A stretch of 54,449 nt of DNA. Source: Candidatus Staskawiczbacteria bacterium (GTDB taxonomy: Bacteria; Patescibacteriota; Minisyncoccia; Minisyncoccales; Staskawiczbacteraceae). The stretch is from contig CAILLM010000005.1 of assembly GCA_903835075.1 (NCBI GenBank), forward strand, positions 1 through 54,449. The letters run 5' to 3'. How positions within the stretch are numbered: the first letter of the stretch is position 1; each line of letters begins with the position of its first letter. Positions 35,585-39,937 of this stretch are shown piece by piece. A program made the translations under genes and the position numbers. The notes under the pieces are model-generated. The model saw only the letters and a program-made list of their open reading frames with translations. It was not told the DNA's origin and did no database searches.

Positions 35585-36457
35585 ATGAATTTAACTTCTC
35601 CAACAATAATAAAAGAACTTCTTGCAAAATATGAAACCTACGCGTCAAAAGGACTTGGGCAAAATTTTTTAATAGACAAAAATGTTTTAAGAAAAATTGT
35701 TTTGGCAGGGGACATAGCACCAACAGACATAATATTGGAAGTTGGCCCTGGGCTTGGAGTACTAACACAAGAATTGGCACCTTTAGCAAAAAAAATTATT
35801 GCTGTTGAAAAAAGTGCCAGCATGCAAAATATTTTAAAAGAAACTTTGGCAGATTATAAAAACATAGAAATTATTGATGCCGACATTTTAACCCTAAACC
35901 CTGAATCCTATATCCTAAATCCTTACAAGGTAATTGCTAATATTCCATATTATTTAACTTCACCATTAATTAGAAAATTTTTAGAAATAGAAACACCTCC
36001 ACAAGAAATAGTTTTAATGATTCAAAAAGAGGTGGCACAAAGAATTTGTGCGCCAGTTGGCAAAATGAGCTTACTGGCAGTTTCTGTACAATTTTATGCA
36101 GATGTAAAAATTGTAAGCTATGTTTCAAAAAATTGTTTTTGGCCTGCACCAAAAATTGATTCAGCAATTATAAAAATAATTCCTCACAAACCCTTCGACT
36201 CCGCTCAGGGCAAAAAACAAATCTCGCATGATTTGTTTTTTGAAATTGTAAAAGCAGGATTTTCACAACCACGCAAACAACTTGGCGGAAATTTTTCTAA
36301 ATTCTTTCCGCCCAAGGCGGACCAGCCTGGGGCTGAAAAACTAAAAAAAGAGGGGATAGAGTCTTGGCTTTTAAAAAATAATATTAAACCCACTCAACGC
36401 GCCCAAACTTTATCAATCCAAGACTGGATCAATTTAACGCAAACTTTTTACATATAA
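35585..36457 (+). CDS. rsmA: 16S rRNA m6,2A dimethyltransferase
   Basis: LGQNFL, LEVGPGLG, ANIPYY, QKEVA; real start ATG 35585, not 35111. Confidence 0.95.
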   Translation: MNLTSPTIIKELLAKYETYASKGLGQNFLIDKNVLRKIVLAGDIAPTDIILEVGPGLGVLTQELAPLAKKIIAVEKSASMQNILKETLADYKNIEIIDADILTLNPESYILNPYKVIANIPYYLTSPLIRKFLEIETPPQEIVLMIQKEVAQRICAPVGKMSLLAVSVQFYADVKIVSYVSKNCFWPAPKIDSAIIKIIPHKPFDSAQGKKQISHDLFFEIVKAGFSQPRKQLGGNFSKFFPPKADQPGAEKLKKEGIESWLLKNNIKPTQRAQTLSIQDWINLTQTFYI

Positions 36458-36483
36458 AGTGTCCGACCGCTCACTTTATATAA
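36452..36483. repeat. 32-bp palindromic direct repeat, left
   Basis: ATATAAAGTGTCCGACCGCTCACTTTATATAA, identical to 37057-37088. Confidence 0.95.
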
Positions 36484-36491
36484 ATACGGTA

Positions 36492-37052
36492 ATGAAAAAA
36501 GTTAAAAAAATAAAAGTTAATTTCCCAACTAAAATTGTATTGGATTATTTGAAAGAAACATCTAAAGATTTATTAAATTTAAGTTTTGATATACTTTTTG
36601 ACCAAGATAAATTAATATCGCAAATAGGTTTCAAAGTAAACTATCCTTCTGTATCGTCTATGATTTGTAGGTGGGCGGATAATTTAGATAAAAATACTTC
36701 TTTTAAAAAACTAAATGGGAAAGTCTATTTAACAGAAAAGGGGCGAATAAAAATTATCAAAAATGTAATTAAAGAAAAAAGTGCTAGCGAAAAATGGGAC
36801 GGGGAGTGGCGAGCGATATGCTTCGACATACCAGAGCTTAATAAAAAAGAAAGAAGATTTTTAAGAACAGAATTAAAATGGATGAAATTCAAGGAACTGC
36901 AACACAGTGTTTGGATTACCCCTTTTAACATAGAAAAAGAACTGCTGACTTTGTTGAAACTTTGGAAGACAGATTTTAAGGGGGATATAAGATTCTTAAA
37001 AATTAAAACTATCACCGATGATAAAGATATTAAAAAATATTTTAAGTTGTAG
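36492..37052 (+). CDS. PaaX-like protein (wHTH wing + Cas2-like domain)
   Basis: YLTEKG, WDGEWRAICFDIPE, R..LR..L...F..LQHSVW; start set to ATG 36492. Confidence 0.8.
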   Translation: MKKVKKIKVNFPTKIVLDYLKETSKDLLNLSFDILFDQDKLISQIGFKVNYPSVSSMICRWADNLDKNTSFKKLNGKVYLTEKGRIKIIKNVIKEKSASEKWDGEWRAICFDIPELNKKERRFLRTELKWMKFKELQHSVWITPFNIEKELLTLLKLWKTDFKGDIRFLKIKTITDDKDIKKYFKL

Positions 37053-37056
37053 TTTT

Positions 37057-37088
37057 ATATAAAGTGTCCGACCGCTCACTTTATATAA
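37057..37088. repeat. 32-bp palindromic direct repeat, right
   Basis: Identical to 36452-36483. Confidence 0.95.
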
Positions 37089-37122
37089 TTGCTCAGTACC
37101 CATTGTTGTCTGGGCAATCTAG

Positions 37123-37144
37123 CTACCTTAAAATTTTTAGATGG
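37123..37144. repeat. 22-bp direct repeat, left (contains traX stop)
   Basis: CTACCTTAAAATTTTTAGATGG, 21/22 match to 37904-37925. Confidence 0.8.
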
Positions 37145-37826
37145 AGTGTGCGATTAAGCCCAGCACAAATATGTGAAGGGGATAGAATGTATAAAATATA
37201 TATTTAGAATAATAACCCCTTTGGCCATTATAATATTTAAGTAAACACAGCGGTATTAAATATCCAAACTGAATTGCAAACCATATAATTGGCAAAGCTA
37301 TATTTATAGAAGAATATGCAAATTTCATTTGACCTATAAAAAGTACAAGCAATATAAGTTGGATAAAAAACAATTTATAAAAATCCTTTTTTATATCAAA
37401 CAAGTAAAAAGAGAAAATTAGTAAAATACCAAAAAAACCAAAACCAAGACCTATATAATTACAAAAAATAGCAACCATAAAAACTACGGCAAGGGCATCT
37501 TTTTTGTTAGCTATGTGGTCATATAAATATAAGGCTAGCAACCCAAAAAATAAGTCTGCAAAAATATTTAGCTTTTCTATGCGTGGATTAAAAGTATATT
37601 GATAAATTGGCTGGGAAATAACAAAAAAAATAAAAATACGAAATAAATATTTTTTGATATTTTTTGTATGACGATACCCCTCTACTGCCAAAAATGCAAA
37701 TATTGGGAATGCTAACCTGCCAGCTATTCTTAAAATAATTAATTTTGGAAAAAAAAGATAGCAAACATGGTCAGCCAACATTGATAAACAAGCTATAACC
37801 TTTAAATGAAAAGAGTTTATGTTCAT
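37137..37826 (-). CDS. traX: TraX family membrane protein
   Basis: LKVIACLSMLADH, GRLAFPIFAFL.VEGY.HT, YNGQRG, FYTFYPLH. Confidence 0.88.
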   Translation of the reverse strand: MNINSFHLKVIACLSMLADHVCYLFFPKLIILRIAGRLAFPIFAFLAVEGYRHTKNIKKYLFRIFIFFVISQPIYQYTFNPRIEKLNIFADLFFGLLALYLYDHIANKKDALAVVFMVAIFCNYIGLGFGFFGILLIFSFYLFDIKKDFYKLFFIQLILLVLFIGQMKFAYSSINIALPIIWFAIQFGYLIPLCLLKYYNGQRGYYSKYIFYTFYPLHIFVLGLIAHSI

Positions 37827-37889
37827 TTAATTATGTTAAACTAAAAAAGAAAAAAAAGCACCCCACCCATAAAATGAAAAAACATTTTA

Positions 37890-37898
37890 TGTGGATAA
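37890..37898 (-). promoter_or_regulatory. DnaA box
   Basis: TGTGGATAA, perfect consensus in the intergenic region. Confidence 0.45.
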
Positions 37899-37903
37899 CT
37901 TGA

Positions 37904-37925
37904 CTACCTTAAAAATTTTAGATGG
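37904..37925. repeat. 22-bp direct repeat, right
   Basis: CTACCTTAAAAATTTTAGATGG. Confidence 0.8.
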
Positions 37926-37963
37926 TGTAAAATAGAACAATTATAGAAAATTAACTGAAAATT

Positions 37964-39937
37964 ATGCAAAAATTTTTCTCTTTTTTAAAACAAAATAAAA
38001 TATTGTTTTTTGTGCTATTGGGATTATTTGTGTGGACAGGGTTACTATGCGTCCCAAGCTACGCAAAAGGGTTTGCAGGGTCTCCTCCTAGCTCCGCAGA
38101 CACTCTGATGAATTCTGTACCAGCAGTGCCATCAGACCTTGCAGAAGACCTAACTTTAGATTGGAAAGAAGTTCTTAATCCATTAAACCTTATGGCTGCT
38201 GCGGGAATGGCTGTTGTAGATGGGTCTTATAGAATTTCACAATATTGTGCTTATGCCCTTGATTACACACTTAAAAATATTTTACGTGCACCAATCACCA
38301 CAAAAGATGCTGGATTTTTAGATGCATGGGCGCAAATAAGAAATTTGGGCAATATGCTAATTGTATTGGGGTTTGTTGTTGTAGGTATTGCAACAGCGCT
38401 AAGAATTCAAACCTATGCTGCAACAAAACTTTTGTGGCCATTAATCTTGGTGGCTATTTTAGTTAATTTTTCGGGATTATTTTGTGGGTTAATAATTGAT
38501 GCATCAAACTTAGTAACCACAGGGCTGATGCAAACTAAGTTAGATACAAATGTTAACCAAAGCCAAGCTCCCGTGCAAATTGGTGGGGCTACTCACAAAG
38601 GCACGCTAGATACAATTTCTACAACACTAGTAAAAGAAATTAAATACACTTCTGTAAAAATCCTTAATCATGATTTATTTGATAAAGGGTTAGCAATGTT
38701 TTTTGTGGGATGCTGTTTATTTGGATTTGTATATTTAGGAATGGCTTTTACTTTCCTTTATTTAACAGTTTTACTTATAGCTAGATATGTTGTGCTAATA
38801 ATGTTATTTATACTTTCACCGTTAGCTTTTACTTTTTGGGTTTTTCCTGCCTCTCAACATTTATGGAAAGAATGGTGGAATCATTTTGTAAAATGGTCAT
38901 TTGTGGGAGTGTTTGGAGCATTTGTCCTTTTCCTCACAAATATAATATTGAGCCAACAAGCCCTTTTAAAAAGTGGAGCAACAAACATGACAGATTTTGC
39001 TCAAATGGGTCCGCTGTTTATTCAAATTATTATTGTTTTAGGATTTATGGCCATTGGATTTAAAATGACAGCTAAGAGTTCGGGCATTGCGTCTATGGCC
39101 ACTGGCGCTGTTTTGGGACTAGCAACTGGCGGAGCAGCTTTAGCAGCTGGATCAGTTGGAAAAGGAGCTAGCTTCTTATCAAATAAAACAGGGTTATCAA
39201 GGGTTGGCAGTAGAATAGGCAATAGCACTGGTAGGCTTGCAGAAAGATTTGGTCTCCGTCAAGAAGGAACTACCGCAGCCGCAGCAGCCAAACAAATGAA
39301 GTCCAAACAAGATTCTATTGGTAATTTAGACCTTGATAGGCAAGCTACATTGGCTGGAGGAAGTGCAATGAGTCATAATGCAGCTCAAGACAAAGTTGCA
39401 GCCATACAAAATTTAGCCAAAACTGGAAATATGCATAGGCTTGGTACTATAGATCAACAAAGAAATGCACTTTCCTATGCCCAAAGCTATATGAGAAGCA
39501 GGGGCGTAGACACGTCTGGATTTATGAGTGATGCAGAAAAATCAGATCCTAGGTTAAGAGCAGCCAACAATGTAAGAATTGAAAATGAAATGAGAGATAA
39601 CTTGCCTGCAATTCCTGCCAATGTTACTGGCGCCGCCAGAACAGTGGCAATAGAACAAAGGAGAAGCGCTGCTCAACACAATATCATAGCCCAAGGATTT
39701 GCTGATGCCAAAACCCCTGATATAAGAGGTTTCCATCCAAATGTATTACGATCAGACGAGTTTATAGAGAACACAAGCGCCAATAAAATTGAAAGGGCAG
39801 CAGCAGGAATGTCCACATCACAAGTTAATGCCCTTAGAGATCATTTAGCTGCTAATAGCCACTTAAACAATCTAATAACCAATAACCCGGGGAACCAAGA
39901 ATTAGCGCAAACACACGCGACCATCGCGGGATTATAA
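37964..39937 (+). CDS. VirB6/TrbL-like polytopic membrane protein
   Basis: W..IRNLGN, LVNFS, R...L..LFILSPLAF, WW..F; Ala/Gly-rich cytoplasmic tail; T4SS context. Confidence 0.75.
   Translation: MQKFFSFLKQNKILFFVLLGLFVWTGLLCVPSYAKGFAGSPPSSADTLMNSVPAVPSDLAEDLTLDWKEVLNPLNLMAAAGMAVVDGSYRISQYCAYALDYTLKNILRAPITTKDAGFLDAWAQIRNLGNMLIVLGFVVVGIATALRIQTYAATKLLWPLILVAILVNFSGLFCGLIIDASNLVTTGLMQTKLDTNVNQSQAPVQIGGATHKGTLDTISTTLVKEIKYTSVKILNHDLFDKGLAMFFVGCCLFGFVYLGMAFTFLYLTVLLIARYVVLIMLFILSPLAFTFWVFPASQHLWKEWWNHFVKWSFVGVFGAFVLFLTNIILSQQALLKSGATNMTDFAQMGPLFIQIIIVLGFMAIGFKMTAKSSGIASMATGAVLGLATGGAALAAGSVGKGASFLSNKTGLSRVGSRIGNSTGRLAERFGLRQEGTTAAAAAKQMKSKQDSIGNLDLDRQATLAGGSAMSHNAAQDKVAAIQNLAKTGNMHRLGTIDQQRNALSYAQSYMRSRGVDTSGFMSDAEKSDPRLRAANNVRIENEMRDNLPAIPANVTGAARTVAIEQRRSAAQHNIIAQGFADAKTPDIRGFHPNVLRSDEFIENTSANKIERAAAGMSTSQVNALRDHLAANSHLNNLITNNPGNQELAQTHATIAGL

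Follow-up and report, generated by a model that had tools for sequence, protein, structure and literature searches.

What does a small, solitary gene do with two identical palindromes placed at its very ends? This question is raised by a 54,449-nt stretch of DNA from a Candidatus Staskawiczbacteria bacterium of the Candidate Phyla Radiation (CPR), hereinafter the window, in which the sequence ATATAAAGTGTCCGACCGCTCACTTTATATAA (P1) occurs twice, at 36452-36483 and 37057-37088, the two copies being identical at 32 of 32 positions with their starts 605 nt apart. The host assembly comprises 794,466 bases in 11 contigs with 35% G+C and is 97.9% complete. Each P1 copy consists of 10-nt complementary arms flanking a 10-nt non-palindromic core, and together they bracket a gene for a 186-residue protein that we term mini-PaaX. 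We find that this gene is a member of a large, apparently undescribed CPR family of self-flanked DNA-binding modules. The features of the locus are as follows:

36452..36483, no strand assigned: upstream copy of P1, with arms ATATAAAGTG and CACTTTATAT and centre TCCGACCGCT; a proposed operator
36492..37052, plus strand: mini-PaaX gene, 186 amino acids, with ATG at 36492 and stop TAG at 37050-37052; matches PaaX_M
37057..37088, no strand assigned: downstream copy of P1 in direct orientation, between the mini-PaaX gene and a convergent TraX gene
35585..36457, plus strand: rsmA/ksgA (RrnaAD), given as context; its last two codons and stop lie within the left arm of the upstream P1

The upstream copy ends 8 nt before the ATG, the downstream copy begins 4 nt after the TAG, and the rsmA stop (TAA, 36455-36457) falls in the left arm of the former. 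Both the perfect 32-bp repeat bracketing the gene and this geometry had been claimed in a first-pass annotation of the window, and the coordinates confirm them. A P1 30-mer with up to three mismatches matches at two places in the window, as compared to none in 100 shuffles, and the 22-mer core with up to two mismatches is found there and nowhere else among the 794,466 bases of the genome (reversed control 0); a looser match (5 mismatches in 30) adds a third copy, diverged and inverted, at C4:3660-3689 on another contig. Thus, the P1-bracketed gene is a real, non-random feature.

The product matches Pfam PaaX_M (PF20803) over residues 100-158 with an E-value of 4.7e-19 (68.7 bits against a gathering threshold of 24), in agreement with the earlier domain call, namely the Cas2-like middle domain of PaaX; no other Pfam family, PaaX_C included, was detected in it. 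An AlphaFold2 model made on a 34-sequence alignment (predicted local distance difference test score 84.5) displays a helical N-domain (approximately residues 10-80) with a β-hairpin (strands 71-74 and 77-80), a long helix (82-99), and then a β-α-β-β-α-β Cas2-like domain (106-171). In this model the N-domain is read as a winged helix, and its sequence shows a weak likeness to the winged-helix DNA binders F-93, TubR, AspA and SlyA (E 0.009-0.9). The top solved structure in a Foldseek search is E. coli PaaX (8a39, E 5.5e-4), followed by Cas2 chains, VapD, Rv0674 and Lrp/AsnC proteins. The curated models place the family below their cut-offs: mini-PaaX scores 25.6 bits against 264.55 for the PaaX equivalog TIGR02277, and three paralogs or homologs score 17.5-20.1 bits against 24.5 for the Cas2 model TIGR01573, with which the window protein gives no match at E <=0.01. 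PADLOC likewise returns only weak Cas2 matches, and the matches to Cas2 profiles are weak and cover the first ~40 model positions.

Eight residues, G84, W106, F111, D112, R121, Q137, S139 and P144, are invariant in all 34 homologs. In two annotated actinobacterial PaaX-family proteins, by contrast, FDIPE is replaced by YQVPE or FSLPE, and Q137 and S139 are missing. Hence, in keeping D112, Q137 and S139, which we take to be conserved motif positions of Cas2, the CPR family is closer to Cas2 at these positions. No HUH/Y1, transposase or recombinase domain was detected in mini-PaaX with Pfam and curated profiles. The first-pass annotation had also reported neither cas1 nor a CRISPR array nearby: the former statement extends to the whole genome, 97.9% complete, in which Cas1 (PF01867) was not found (as a control, 7 of 14 reference genomes match), while a CRISPR array was not searched for.

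The self-flanked layout is a rule of the family. The genome carries six paralogs, 35-55% identical to the window protein, and all six are flanked both upstream and downstream by their own palindrome of 28-36 nt. When the 654 testable genes of the genome are scored by the best ungapped repeat between their upstream and downstream flanks, the scores have a median of 9, a 95th percentile of 13 and a 99th percentile of 24.4, the six paralogs rank 3, 4, 5, 6, 10 and 16, and 13 of the 648 other genes score at least 15. Across the same taxonomic family, 46 of 61 genomes have homolog matches, with a maximum of 18 in a genome of ~0.6 Mb. We compiled 115 loci, six from the host genome plus 29 and 80 among the matches listed, beyond which there are 66 further matches; the set leaves out matches at contig edges and those with short frames, and 114 of its loci have enough flanking sequence. 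Far from generally lacking flanking repeats, the eventuality that the first-pass annotation had named as speaking against its proposal, these loci carry them with a score of at least 15 in 96 of 114 cases and of at least 20 in 77. Both sites are anchored to the gene's own ends, with the start of the downstream copy mostly at -15 to +30 relative to the stop. In 68 direct-repeat pairs scoring at least 20 the copies are spaced 570-889 nt apart (median 632), and over the 96 pairs the orientation is direct in 37, inverted in 12, and symmetric, i.e., orientation-less, in 47. The site centres of the relatives are mostly symmetric (e.g., CGATCG or CGGCCG), so that the asymmetric core stressed in the first-pass annotation holds for P1 but not as a feature of the family; in P1, a variant, the half-sites differ from each other (GTGTCCG and GTGAGCG).

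A profile built from 34 members recovers 4,281 clusters (50% identity) at E <=1e-10 among 1.84 billion representatives. In the source databases close members are annotated as hypothetical, PaaX, VapD or Cas2. Phage records yielded no protein match to mini-PaaX, and plasmids yielded four matches only, all distant actinobacterial proteins of the PaaX type. In the full-text literature, with supplements outside the search, we found no paper on the mini-PaaX module.

Sites and proteins diverge together. Among locus pairs, which are not mutually independent, 48% of the 27 with N-domain identity of at least 0.70 share a site (local score at least 14), as compared to 20% of 249 pairs at 0.50-0.70 and 0 of 3,481 below 0.35; syntenic relatives, such as L005 and L023, have nearly the same palindrome. 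Moreover, a simple correspondence between residues and bases emerges from 73 sites aligned on their dyads. The third base out is C in 71 of the 73 (C-N-N|N-N-G), against a genomic G+C content of 35%. The residue that follows FDIP (E115 in the window protein) goes with base 2, with E corresponding to G in 40 of 41 determinate cases, N to T in every one of 9, and R/V/K to A in 5 of 5, while D is found with a mixture (5 T, 3 G). The variable residue of the LQxS motif (H138) goes with base 1, with K corresponding to A in 34 of 36, E to C in 11 of 15, and H or Q to G in 7 of 8. In 35 disjoint close pairs, the two-by-two table is 22, 1 over 1, 5 for E115 and base 2 (p 2.9e-4) and 19, 0 over 2, 4 for H138 and base 1 (p 1.2e-3). 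A quick maximum-likelihood tree, built with both trait columns (115 and 138) kept in the alignment, provides six independent pairs differing by E versus non-E at 115; in these, E115 and G2 change in the same direction 5.6 times on average and in the opposite direction 0 times (sign test, median p 0.031). In eight out-of-sample loci (L205, L214, L254, L255, L265 and L284-L286), base 2 was as predicted in 8 of 8 by our own reading.

The contrasts also apportion the site between the domains. Bases 1, 2 and 4 pair with the Cas2-domain residues H138, E115 and K118; bases 5, 9 and 14-16 pair mostly with residues 49-99, i.e., the winged helix and the long helix; and bases 8 and 9 pair also with T126, E120 and E148. 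In the model, E115 and K118 open the helix 115-130, while H138 belongs to the turn that connects strands 134-137 and 140-143. The fold topology, from which we argue here without recourse to the coordinates, would put E115, K118 and H138 on the same face as D112, Q137 and S139. Taken together, co-divergence and residue-base covariation point to a product that reads its own palindromes, which lends support, at the level of sequence, to the earlier idea that the product recognizes the repeat.

We posit that the gene and its two palindromes probably constitute a self-contained, autoregulated module of a protein and its DNA sites, with the binding being predicted from these sequence patterns. The 186-residue protein would be a sequence-specific DNA binder acting most likely as a symmetric dimer, as suggested by the symmetry of the sites and by its relatives, which are presumably dimeric. 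Its Cas2-fold domain would be placed on the dyad, reading the central base pairs, and the two winged helices would read the AT-rich outer arms approximately one helical turn to each side, with both palindrome copies at the gene's own ends as the cognate sites. The upstream copy might effect self-repression in one of two arrangements. In the window subfamily it is at the gene start, with 7-19 nt between its end and the ATG in 13 of 15 loci, and 12 of 15 lack a -10 box 3′ of the site. In other subfamilies TATAAT, often as TGnTATAAT, is commonly found 2-30 nt 3′ of the upstream palindrome, which would accordingly cover the -35 region of an extended -10 promoter. Autorepression is compatible with either arrangement, and we take it as the most likely function, thereby favoring what the first-pass annotation had offered as its alternative, an autoregulatory loop. 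For the downstream copy at the stop, a second binding site in this scheme, we infer a role either as a roadblock against read-through or convergent transcription or as a partner in looping.

Terminator-like sites are absent from 36300-37250, and no T-run is present at the downstream P1; the P1 RNA hairpin is of about -12 to -14 kcal/mol. Two candidate signals concerning the sites were tried and rejected. A first look at their helical phasing gave R 0.31 at 10.7-10.8 bp; on re-test with centre-based distances, the 10.7-bp peak had p 0.59 over the scan and p 0.12 within 10.2-11.0 bp, and with redundancy removed from the set the peak was instead at 13.0 bp (p 0.55; 0.39 within 10.2-11.0 bp). The downstream site as an operator of the next gene showed no special signal either, with the next gene being co-directional in 68 of 92 loci and the upstream neighbor in 66 of 90; the next gene in the window is convergent.

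Palindromes of this kind also occur singly in the host genome. Palindrome P4 has one perfect solo copy, 35 nt after groEL, and P5 has two (C2:59794-59821 and C4:127633-127660), each 40-41 nt 5′ of a Zn-ribbon paralog. Both P5 copies are situated between tandem paralogs of a ~570-residue Zn-ribbon protein, and could be a regulatory target or part of a duplicated segment. P3 has one solo copy with 1 mismatch, and there is one P6-like copy with 5 mismatches. The diverged P1-like copy at C4:3660-3689 (L148; 30 nt, 25/30 identical, inverted) is located in rlmN, a radical-SAM gene, in frame and within a variable loop. Among 21 rlmN orthologs of the genus, 12 have no insert, 8 have an in-frame insert of 24-33 nt at the same spot, and 1 is intermediate; in the five insert-bearing relatives that were searched, the insert is part of a dispersed GC-rich element, present 9-23 times per genome (reversed control 0-2). 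This element (consensus CCCTGAGCGAAGTCGAAGGG) has 21 copies with up to three mismatches in the host genome. One of its copies is in frame within rsmA (36192-36209), where it reads PFDSAQG, and its loop is resembled by the P1 centre on the other strand (TGAGCGGTCGGA versus TGAGCGGAGTCGAA), which may be chance.

In a pattern scan of species-representative genomes, the core AAAGTGTCCGNNCGGACACTTT was found with differing outer arms in many CPR metagenome-assembled genomes (MAGs). In one Saccharibacteria MAG a palindrome of 26-46 nt is present at least 12 times, and a homolog with 50% identity to the window protein is located between two of these copies. We examined 25 dispersed copies, and 6 of them are within open reading frames (ORFs) of at least 100 residues. 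The differences between the copies of a pair are mirror-compensated in 14 instances, against 1.9 expected and a maximum of 8 in 2,000 permutations; L136 and L147 contribute four each, and single differences number 99. By our count, both flanks are common to 18 of 63 close homolog pairs, one flank is common to 16, and 29 have neither in common. The exact P1 core had no match in metagenome contigs. In the metagenome run X3, a low-depth contig of 220 nt has a P1-like palindrome (2 differences in 33 nt) between unrelated flanks, which shows that related sites exist elsewhere in the same lake community. Two further genes of the host genome have a comparable layout. An IS200-like Y1_Tnp gene of the RAYT type (REP-associated tyrosine transposase, where REP is repetitive extragenic palindromic; C8:99542-100270, minus strand) is flanked by its own 23-nt palindrome, with a third copy (one difference) inside the gene and three copies only in the genome. 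A gene for a 205-residue membrane protein without a Pfam match (C9:21253-21870) is situated between two copies of AGGTTGCCCTAGGGCAACCT, one ~220 nt 5′ of the start and one over the stop, with five copies at up to three mismatches in the genome.

The surroundings of the window gene bear on how it came to be there. Its neighbors are rsmA (RrnaAD) on the 5′ side, a convergent TraX-family gene on the 3′ side and, further on, a gene for a 657-residue membrane protein (37964-39937). The 24 same-genus genomes with rsmA have neither a PaaX-like gene nor a P1 copy 3′ of it; of the empty alleles for which the first-pass annotation had proposed to look, with zero or one repeat after rsmA, the one with a single P1 is thus not seen among them. 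In nine genus loci, a homolog of the membrane protein is within 1.5 kb of rsmA, and in L046 and L053 it starts within ~20 nt of it. Three metagenome contigs (L284-L286) code for homologs 64-65% identical to the window protein directly 3′ of rsmA, with the membrane-protein gene beyond and no traX. Their palindromes have diverged: L284 has the left half of the P1 site in common (ATATAAAGTGTCCGACCG), and its arm includes the rsmA stop; both copies in L285 are of one perfect 36-nt palindrome; and those in L286 are each palindromic with arms that differ between them. In L287, which is 87% identical over the last 76 residues, the downstream site has the two unlike half-sites of P1 in the opposite order. 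Homologs at the same place with diverged palindromes point to a long stay at this site and look like the outcome of inheritance in place; either the module has long been resident after rsmA in one lineage or it targets this spot. More generally, the module appears to be mostly inherited in place, and copies of its palindromes now and then arise at other places, in some cases in frame within genes, in a REP-like manner.

The DNA 3′ of rsmA is variable in the genus: an ORF resembling an IS200/RAYT-type transposase (by eye) follows rsmA in three genomes, hairpins extend over the rsmA stop in L040 and L041, and three other genomes have partial second copies of the rsmA 3′ end 0.6-1 kb downstream (the loci of this spot being L040, L041, L063, L043, L044 and L061). 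In L051 (genome G056), 72 nt from the end of the contig, a perfect AT-rich palindrome of 26 nt covers the rsmA stop, as P1 does. The convergent TraX-family gene (37137-37826) is itself bracketed by a 42-nt direct repeat (76% identical; 37106-37147 and 37887-37928), and with no TraX match in the 1.5 kb beside rsmA in the genus loci or in L284-L287, it looks to have been inserted separately.

Several observations weigh against an autoregulated module. A clear flanking repeat is lacking at 18 of the 114 loci, and in the window the promoter scan found no sigma-70-like promoter at or after P1, though the mini-PaaX gene may be transcribed by read-through from rsmA. None of 2,029 covariation tests passes a Bonferroni correction; on the tree, K138 versus A1 (3.6 of 6, p 0.125) is not significant; and in the out-of-sample loci base 1 was right in 4 of 8, half right in 2 and wrong in 2. 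Furthermore, a regulatory role leaves several features without an explanation: the 100% identity of 18 of 96 pairs over the whole of the reported stretch, including any non-symmetric positions, the perfect solo copies, the palindromes found in frame within genes, and the invariance in this family of the Cas2-type Asp, Gln and Ser, which the two annotated PaaX-family proteins lack.

These residues and copies speak for another explanation, which we consider unlikely: a REP/RAYT-like system in which a Cas2-fold nuclease nicks or cuts its cognate palindrome at or near the dyad, in duplex or extruded hairpin form, thereby copying palindromes and, rarely, the gene, which persists as the single-copy, mostly vertically inherited partner of its repeat family. 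It would account for the three perfect solo copies of P4 (one) and P5 (two), for the at least 12 copies in the Saccharibacteria MAG with two of them flanking a homolog, for the 6 of 25 dispersed copies in ORFs and the in-frame copy in rlmN, as well as for the invariance of D112, Q137 and S139, some Cas2 proteins being titled nucleases in their PDB entries (4es1). The enrichment of mirror-compensated differences (14 versus 1.9) and the bona fide Y1_Tnp gene of the same genome, which has the same layout with only three palindrome copies, are also in its favor. However, compensated changes can arise by template-switching during replication without any enzyme, and the 14 compensated pairs stand beside 99 single differences. 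Moreover, the protein has no HUH/Y1 or known transposase or recombinase domain, copy numbers are very low (two plus one diverged for P1), many close homolog pairs are syntenic (18 of 63 share both flanks), and homologs are absent from phage records and represented on plasmids only by distant PaaX proteins. The conserved residues, being on the face that covaries with the bases, may be DNA contacts rather than a catalytic site. A more specific version, in which the family is a free-living branch of the Cas2/VapD fold that reads the dyad of a ~30-nt palindromic repeat and cuts or nicks it via the invariant Asp, seems to us decidedly unlikely.

At the level of RNA, the hairpins of the transcript might serve as a 5′ translational block and a 3′ terminator or stabilizer, possibly bound by the Cas2-fold domain in the manner of an RNA recognition motif (RRM). 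The hairpins do fold more stably than shuffled sequences (z -2.4 to -3.6), in the window subfamily the upstream site is adjacent to the start codon, and G.T mismatches on the sense strand outnumber A.C (45 versus 24), but 123 of 192 arm mismatches are neither, which makes this signature too weak to use. Since a -10 box is commonly found 3′ of the upstream site in other subfamilies, the site is probably not co-transcribed with the gene there; the downstream hairpin is not followed by a T-run, no Rfam family matches the palindromes, and the conserved C-N4-G centre and the residue-base code fit the reading of a duplex better than a stem. We thus regard such an element as improbable. The principal model of the first-pass annotation, an excisable one-gene cassette with site-specific recombination between the direct repeats, an asymmetric core giving direction and one repeat left behind, is very improbable in our view. 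Perfect 32-nt direct repeats with an asymmetric core are what it would expect, and the gene is absent 3′ of rsmA in the 24 same-genus genomes, where the flank is variable. However, orientation is not conserved among the 96 pairs, centres are usually symmetric, no recombinase fold or domain is present, no relative has a lone P1 after rsmA and the exact core is unmatched in metagenome contigs, while the diverged palindromes of L284-L286 at the same position speak of long residence. Assembled reads say little on this point: Logan contigs (k=31) from four metagenome runs of one lake-water study, three of them possibly the source, break exactly at the repeat into a left piece, a middle piece of 633-635 nt and a right piece. 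This fits the assembly, but contigs with k=31 split at a 32-nt repeat, so the linkage is not independently provable from them and an empty allele or a circle would be invisible. Left/middle/right depths are 17.7/10.6/16.2 in X1, 30.6/28.3/27.5 in X2, 11.8/7.0/~4.2 in X3 (where the right side is several short contigs) and 4.9/3.2/6.4 in X4; we use them for no conclusion, and the middle piece being below its flanks in two of the four runs is at most a weak hint of excision. The inability of short-k contigs to bridge the repeat could likewise be held in favor of a chance repeat or an assembly artefact, which is effectively refuted by the absence of matches in 100 shuffles and by the same layout at 96 of 114 independent loci in dozens of assemblies.

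An autoregulated module of protein and sites, our preferred reading, gains interest from where it is found. The genomes of CPR/Patescibacteria are tiny and poor in regulators, and in these the family reaches up to 18 matches in ~0.6 Mb and comprises 4,281 sequence clusters. As each member adjoins its own putative site in duplicate, nature provides hundreds of protein-site pairs, 73 of which already yield a simple residue-to-base rule. The family thus lends itself readily to testing how the Cas2 fold may be put to a new, DNA-reading use and how specificity evolves. Were the nuclease reading true, a second, unrelated class of enzymes would join the REP/RAYT-type repeat systems, with a protein that, like RAYT but without being an HUH enzyme, spreads its own palindromes, even into genes. 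The family would then also be informative about how Cas2 originated, possibly as a living model of a Cas2-like protein first becoming tied to palindromic repeats before CRISPR adaptation.

PaaX is the phenylacetyl-CoA-responsive repressor of paa operons and binds palindromic operators. Mini-PaaX shares with it (PDB 8a39; Pfam PaaX, PaaX_M and PaaX_C; TIGR02277) a winged helix followed by a Cas2-like middle domain. However, as compared to the two annotated PaaX-family proteins, it is ~100 residues shorter and without PaaX_C, and it keeps D112, Q137 and S139, which those two lack. It also differs from PaaX in having two sites that bracket its own gene and a middle domain that appears to read bases. 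Its gene is beside rsmA, TraX-family and 657-residue membrane-protein genes and not beside paa genes, the scan for which covered the neighbors. With Cas2 and VapD it has in common the β-α-β-β-α-β fold (Foldseek matches 5zyf, 8ia4, 6jhz, 2ivy, 4es1 and 3ui3) and an association with palindromic repeats of ~30 nt. It differs from Cas2 in its fusion to a winged helix, its sub-cut-off profile scores and the lack of a detected Cas1 in the genome, 97.9% complete, and from VapD in that no antitoxin partner adjoins the gene.

The Lrp/AsnC proteins likewise combine an N-terminal helix-turn-helix with a C-terminal β-α-β-β-α-β domain and give weak structural matches (2p6t, 2p5v and 2cfx), but have no detectable sequence relationship to mini-PaaX. 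In Lrp the C-domain serves ligand binding and oligomerization and not the reading of DNA. The in-frame palindromes in housekeeping genes, here rlmN and rsmA, recall the Rickettsia palindromic elements, short palindromic repeats that are tolerated in frame in such genes; those are, to our knowledge, longer and without a known partner protein.

The REP/RAYT systems (PMC2817692) differ in that their protein is a HUH/Y1 transposase, whereas mini-PaaX has no Y1_Tnp match and a PaaX/Cas2-like fold; its flanking copies are more often direct or symmetric than inverted; and its palindromes number 2-4 copies in the host genome rather than hundreds and lack a GTAG-type head. Yet they offer a close parallel to its organization: in both, a single small gene has a copy of its own palindrome on either side, every paralog is associated with a separate repeat family, solo repeats are found near gene ends, complementary changes maintain palindromy, and inheritance is mostly vertical.

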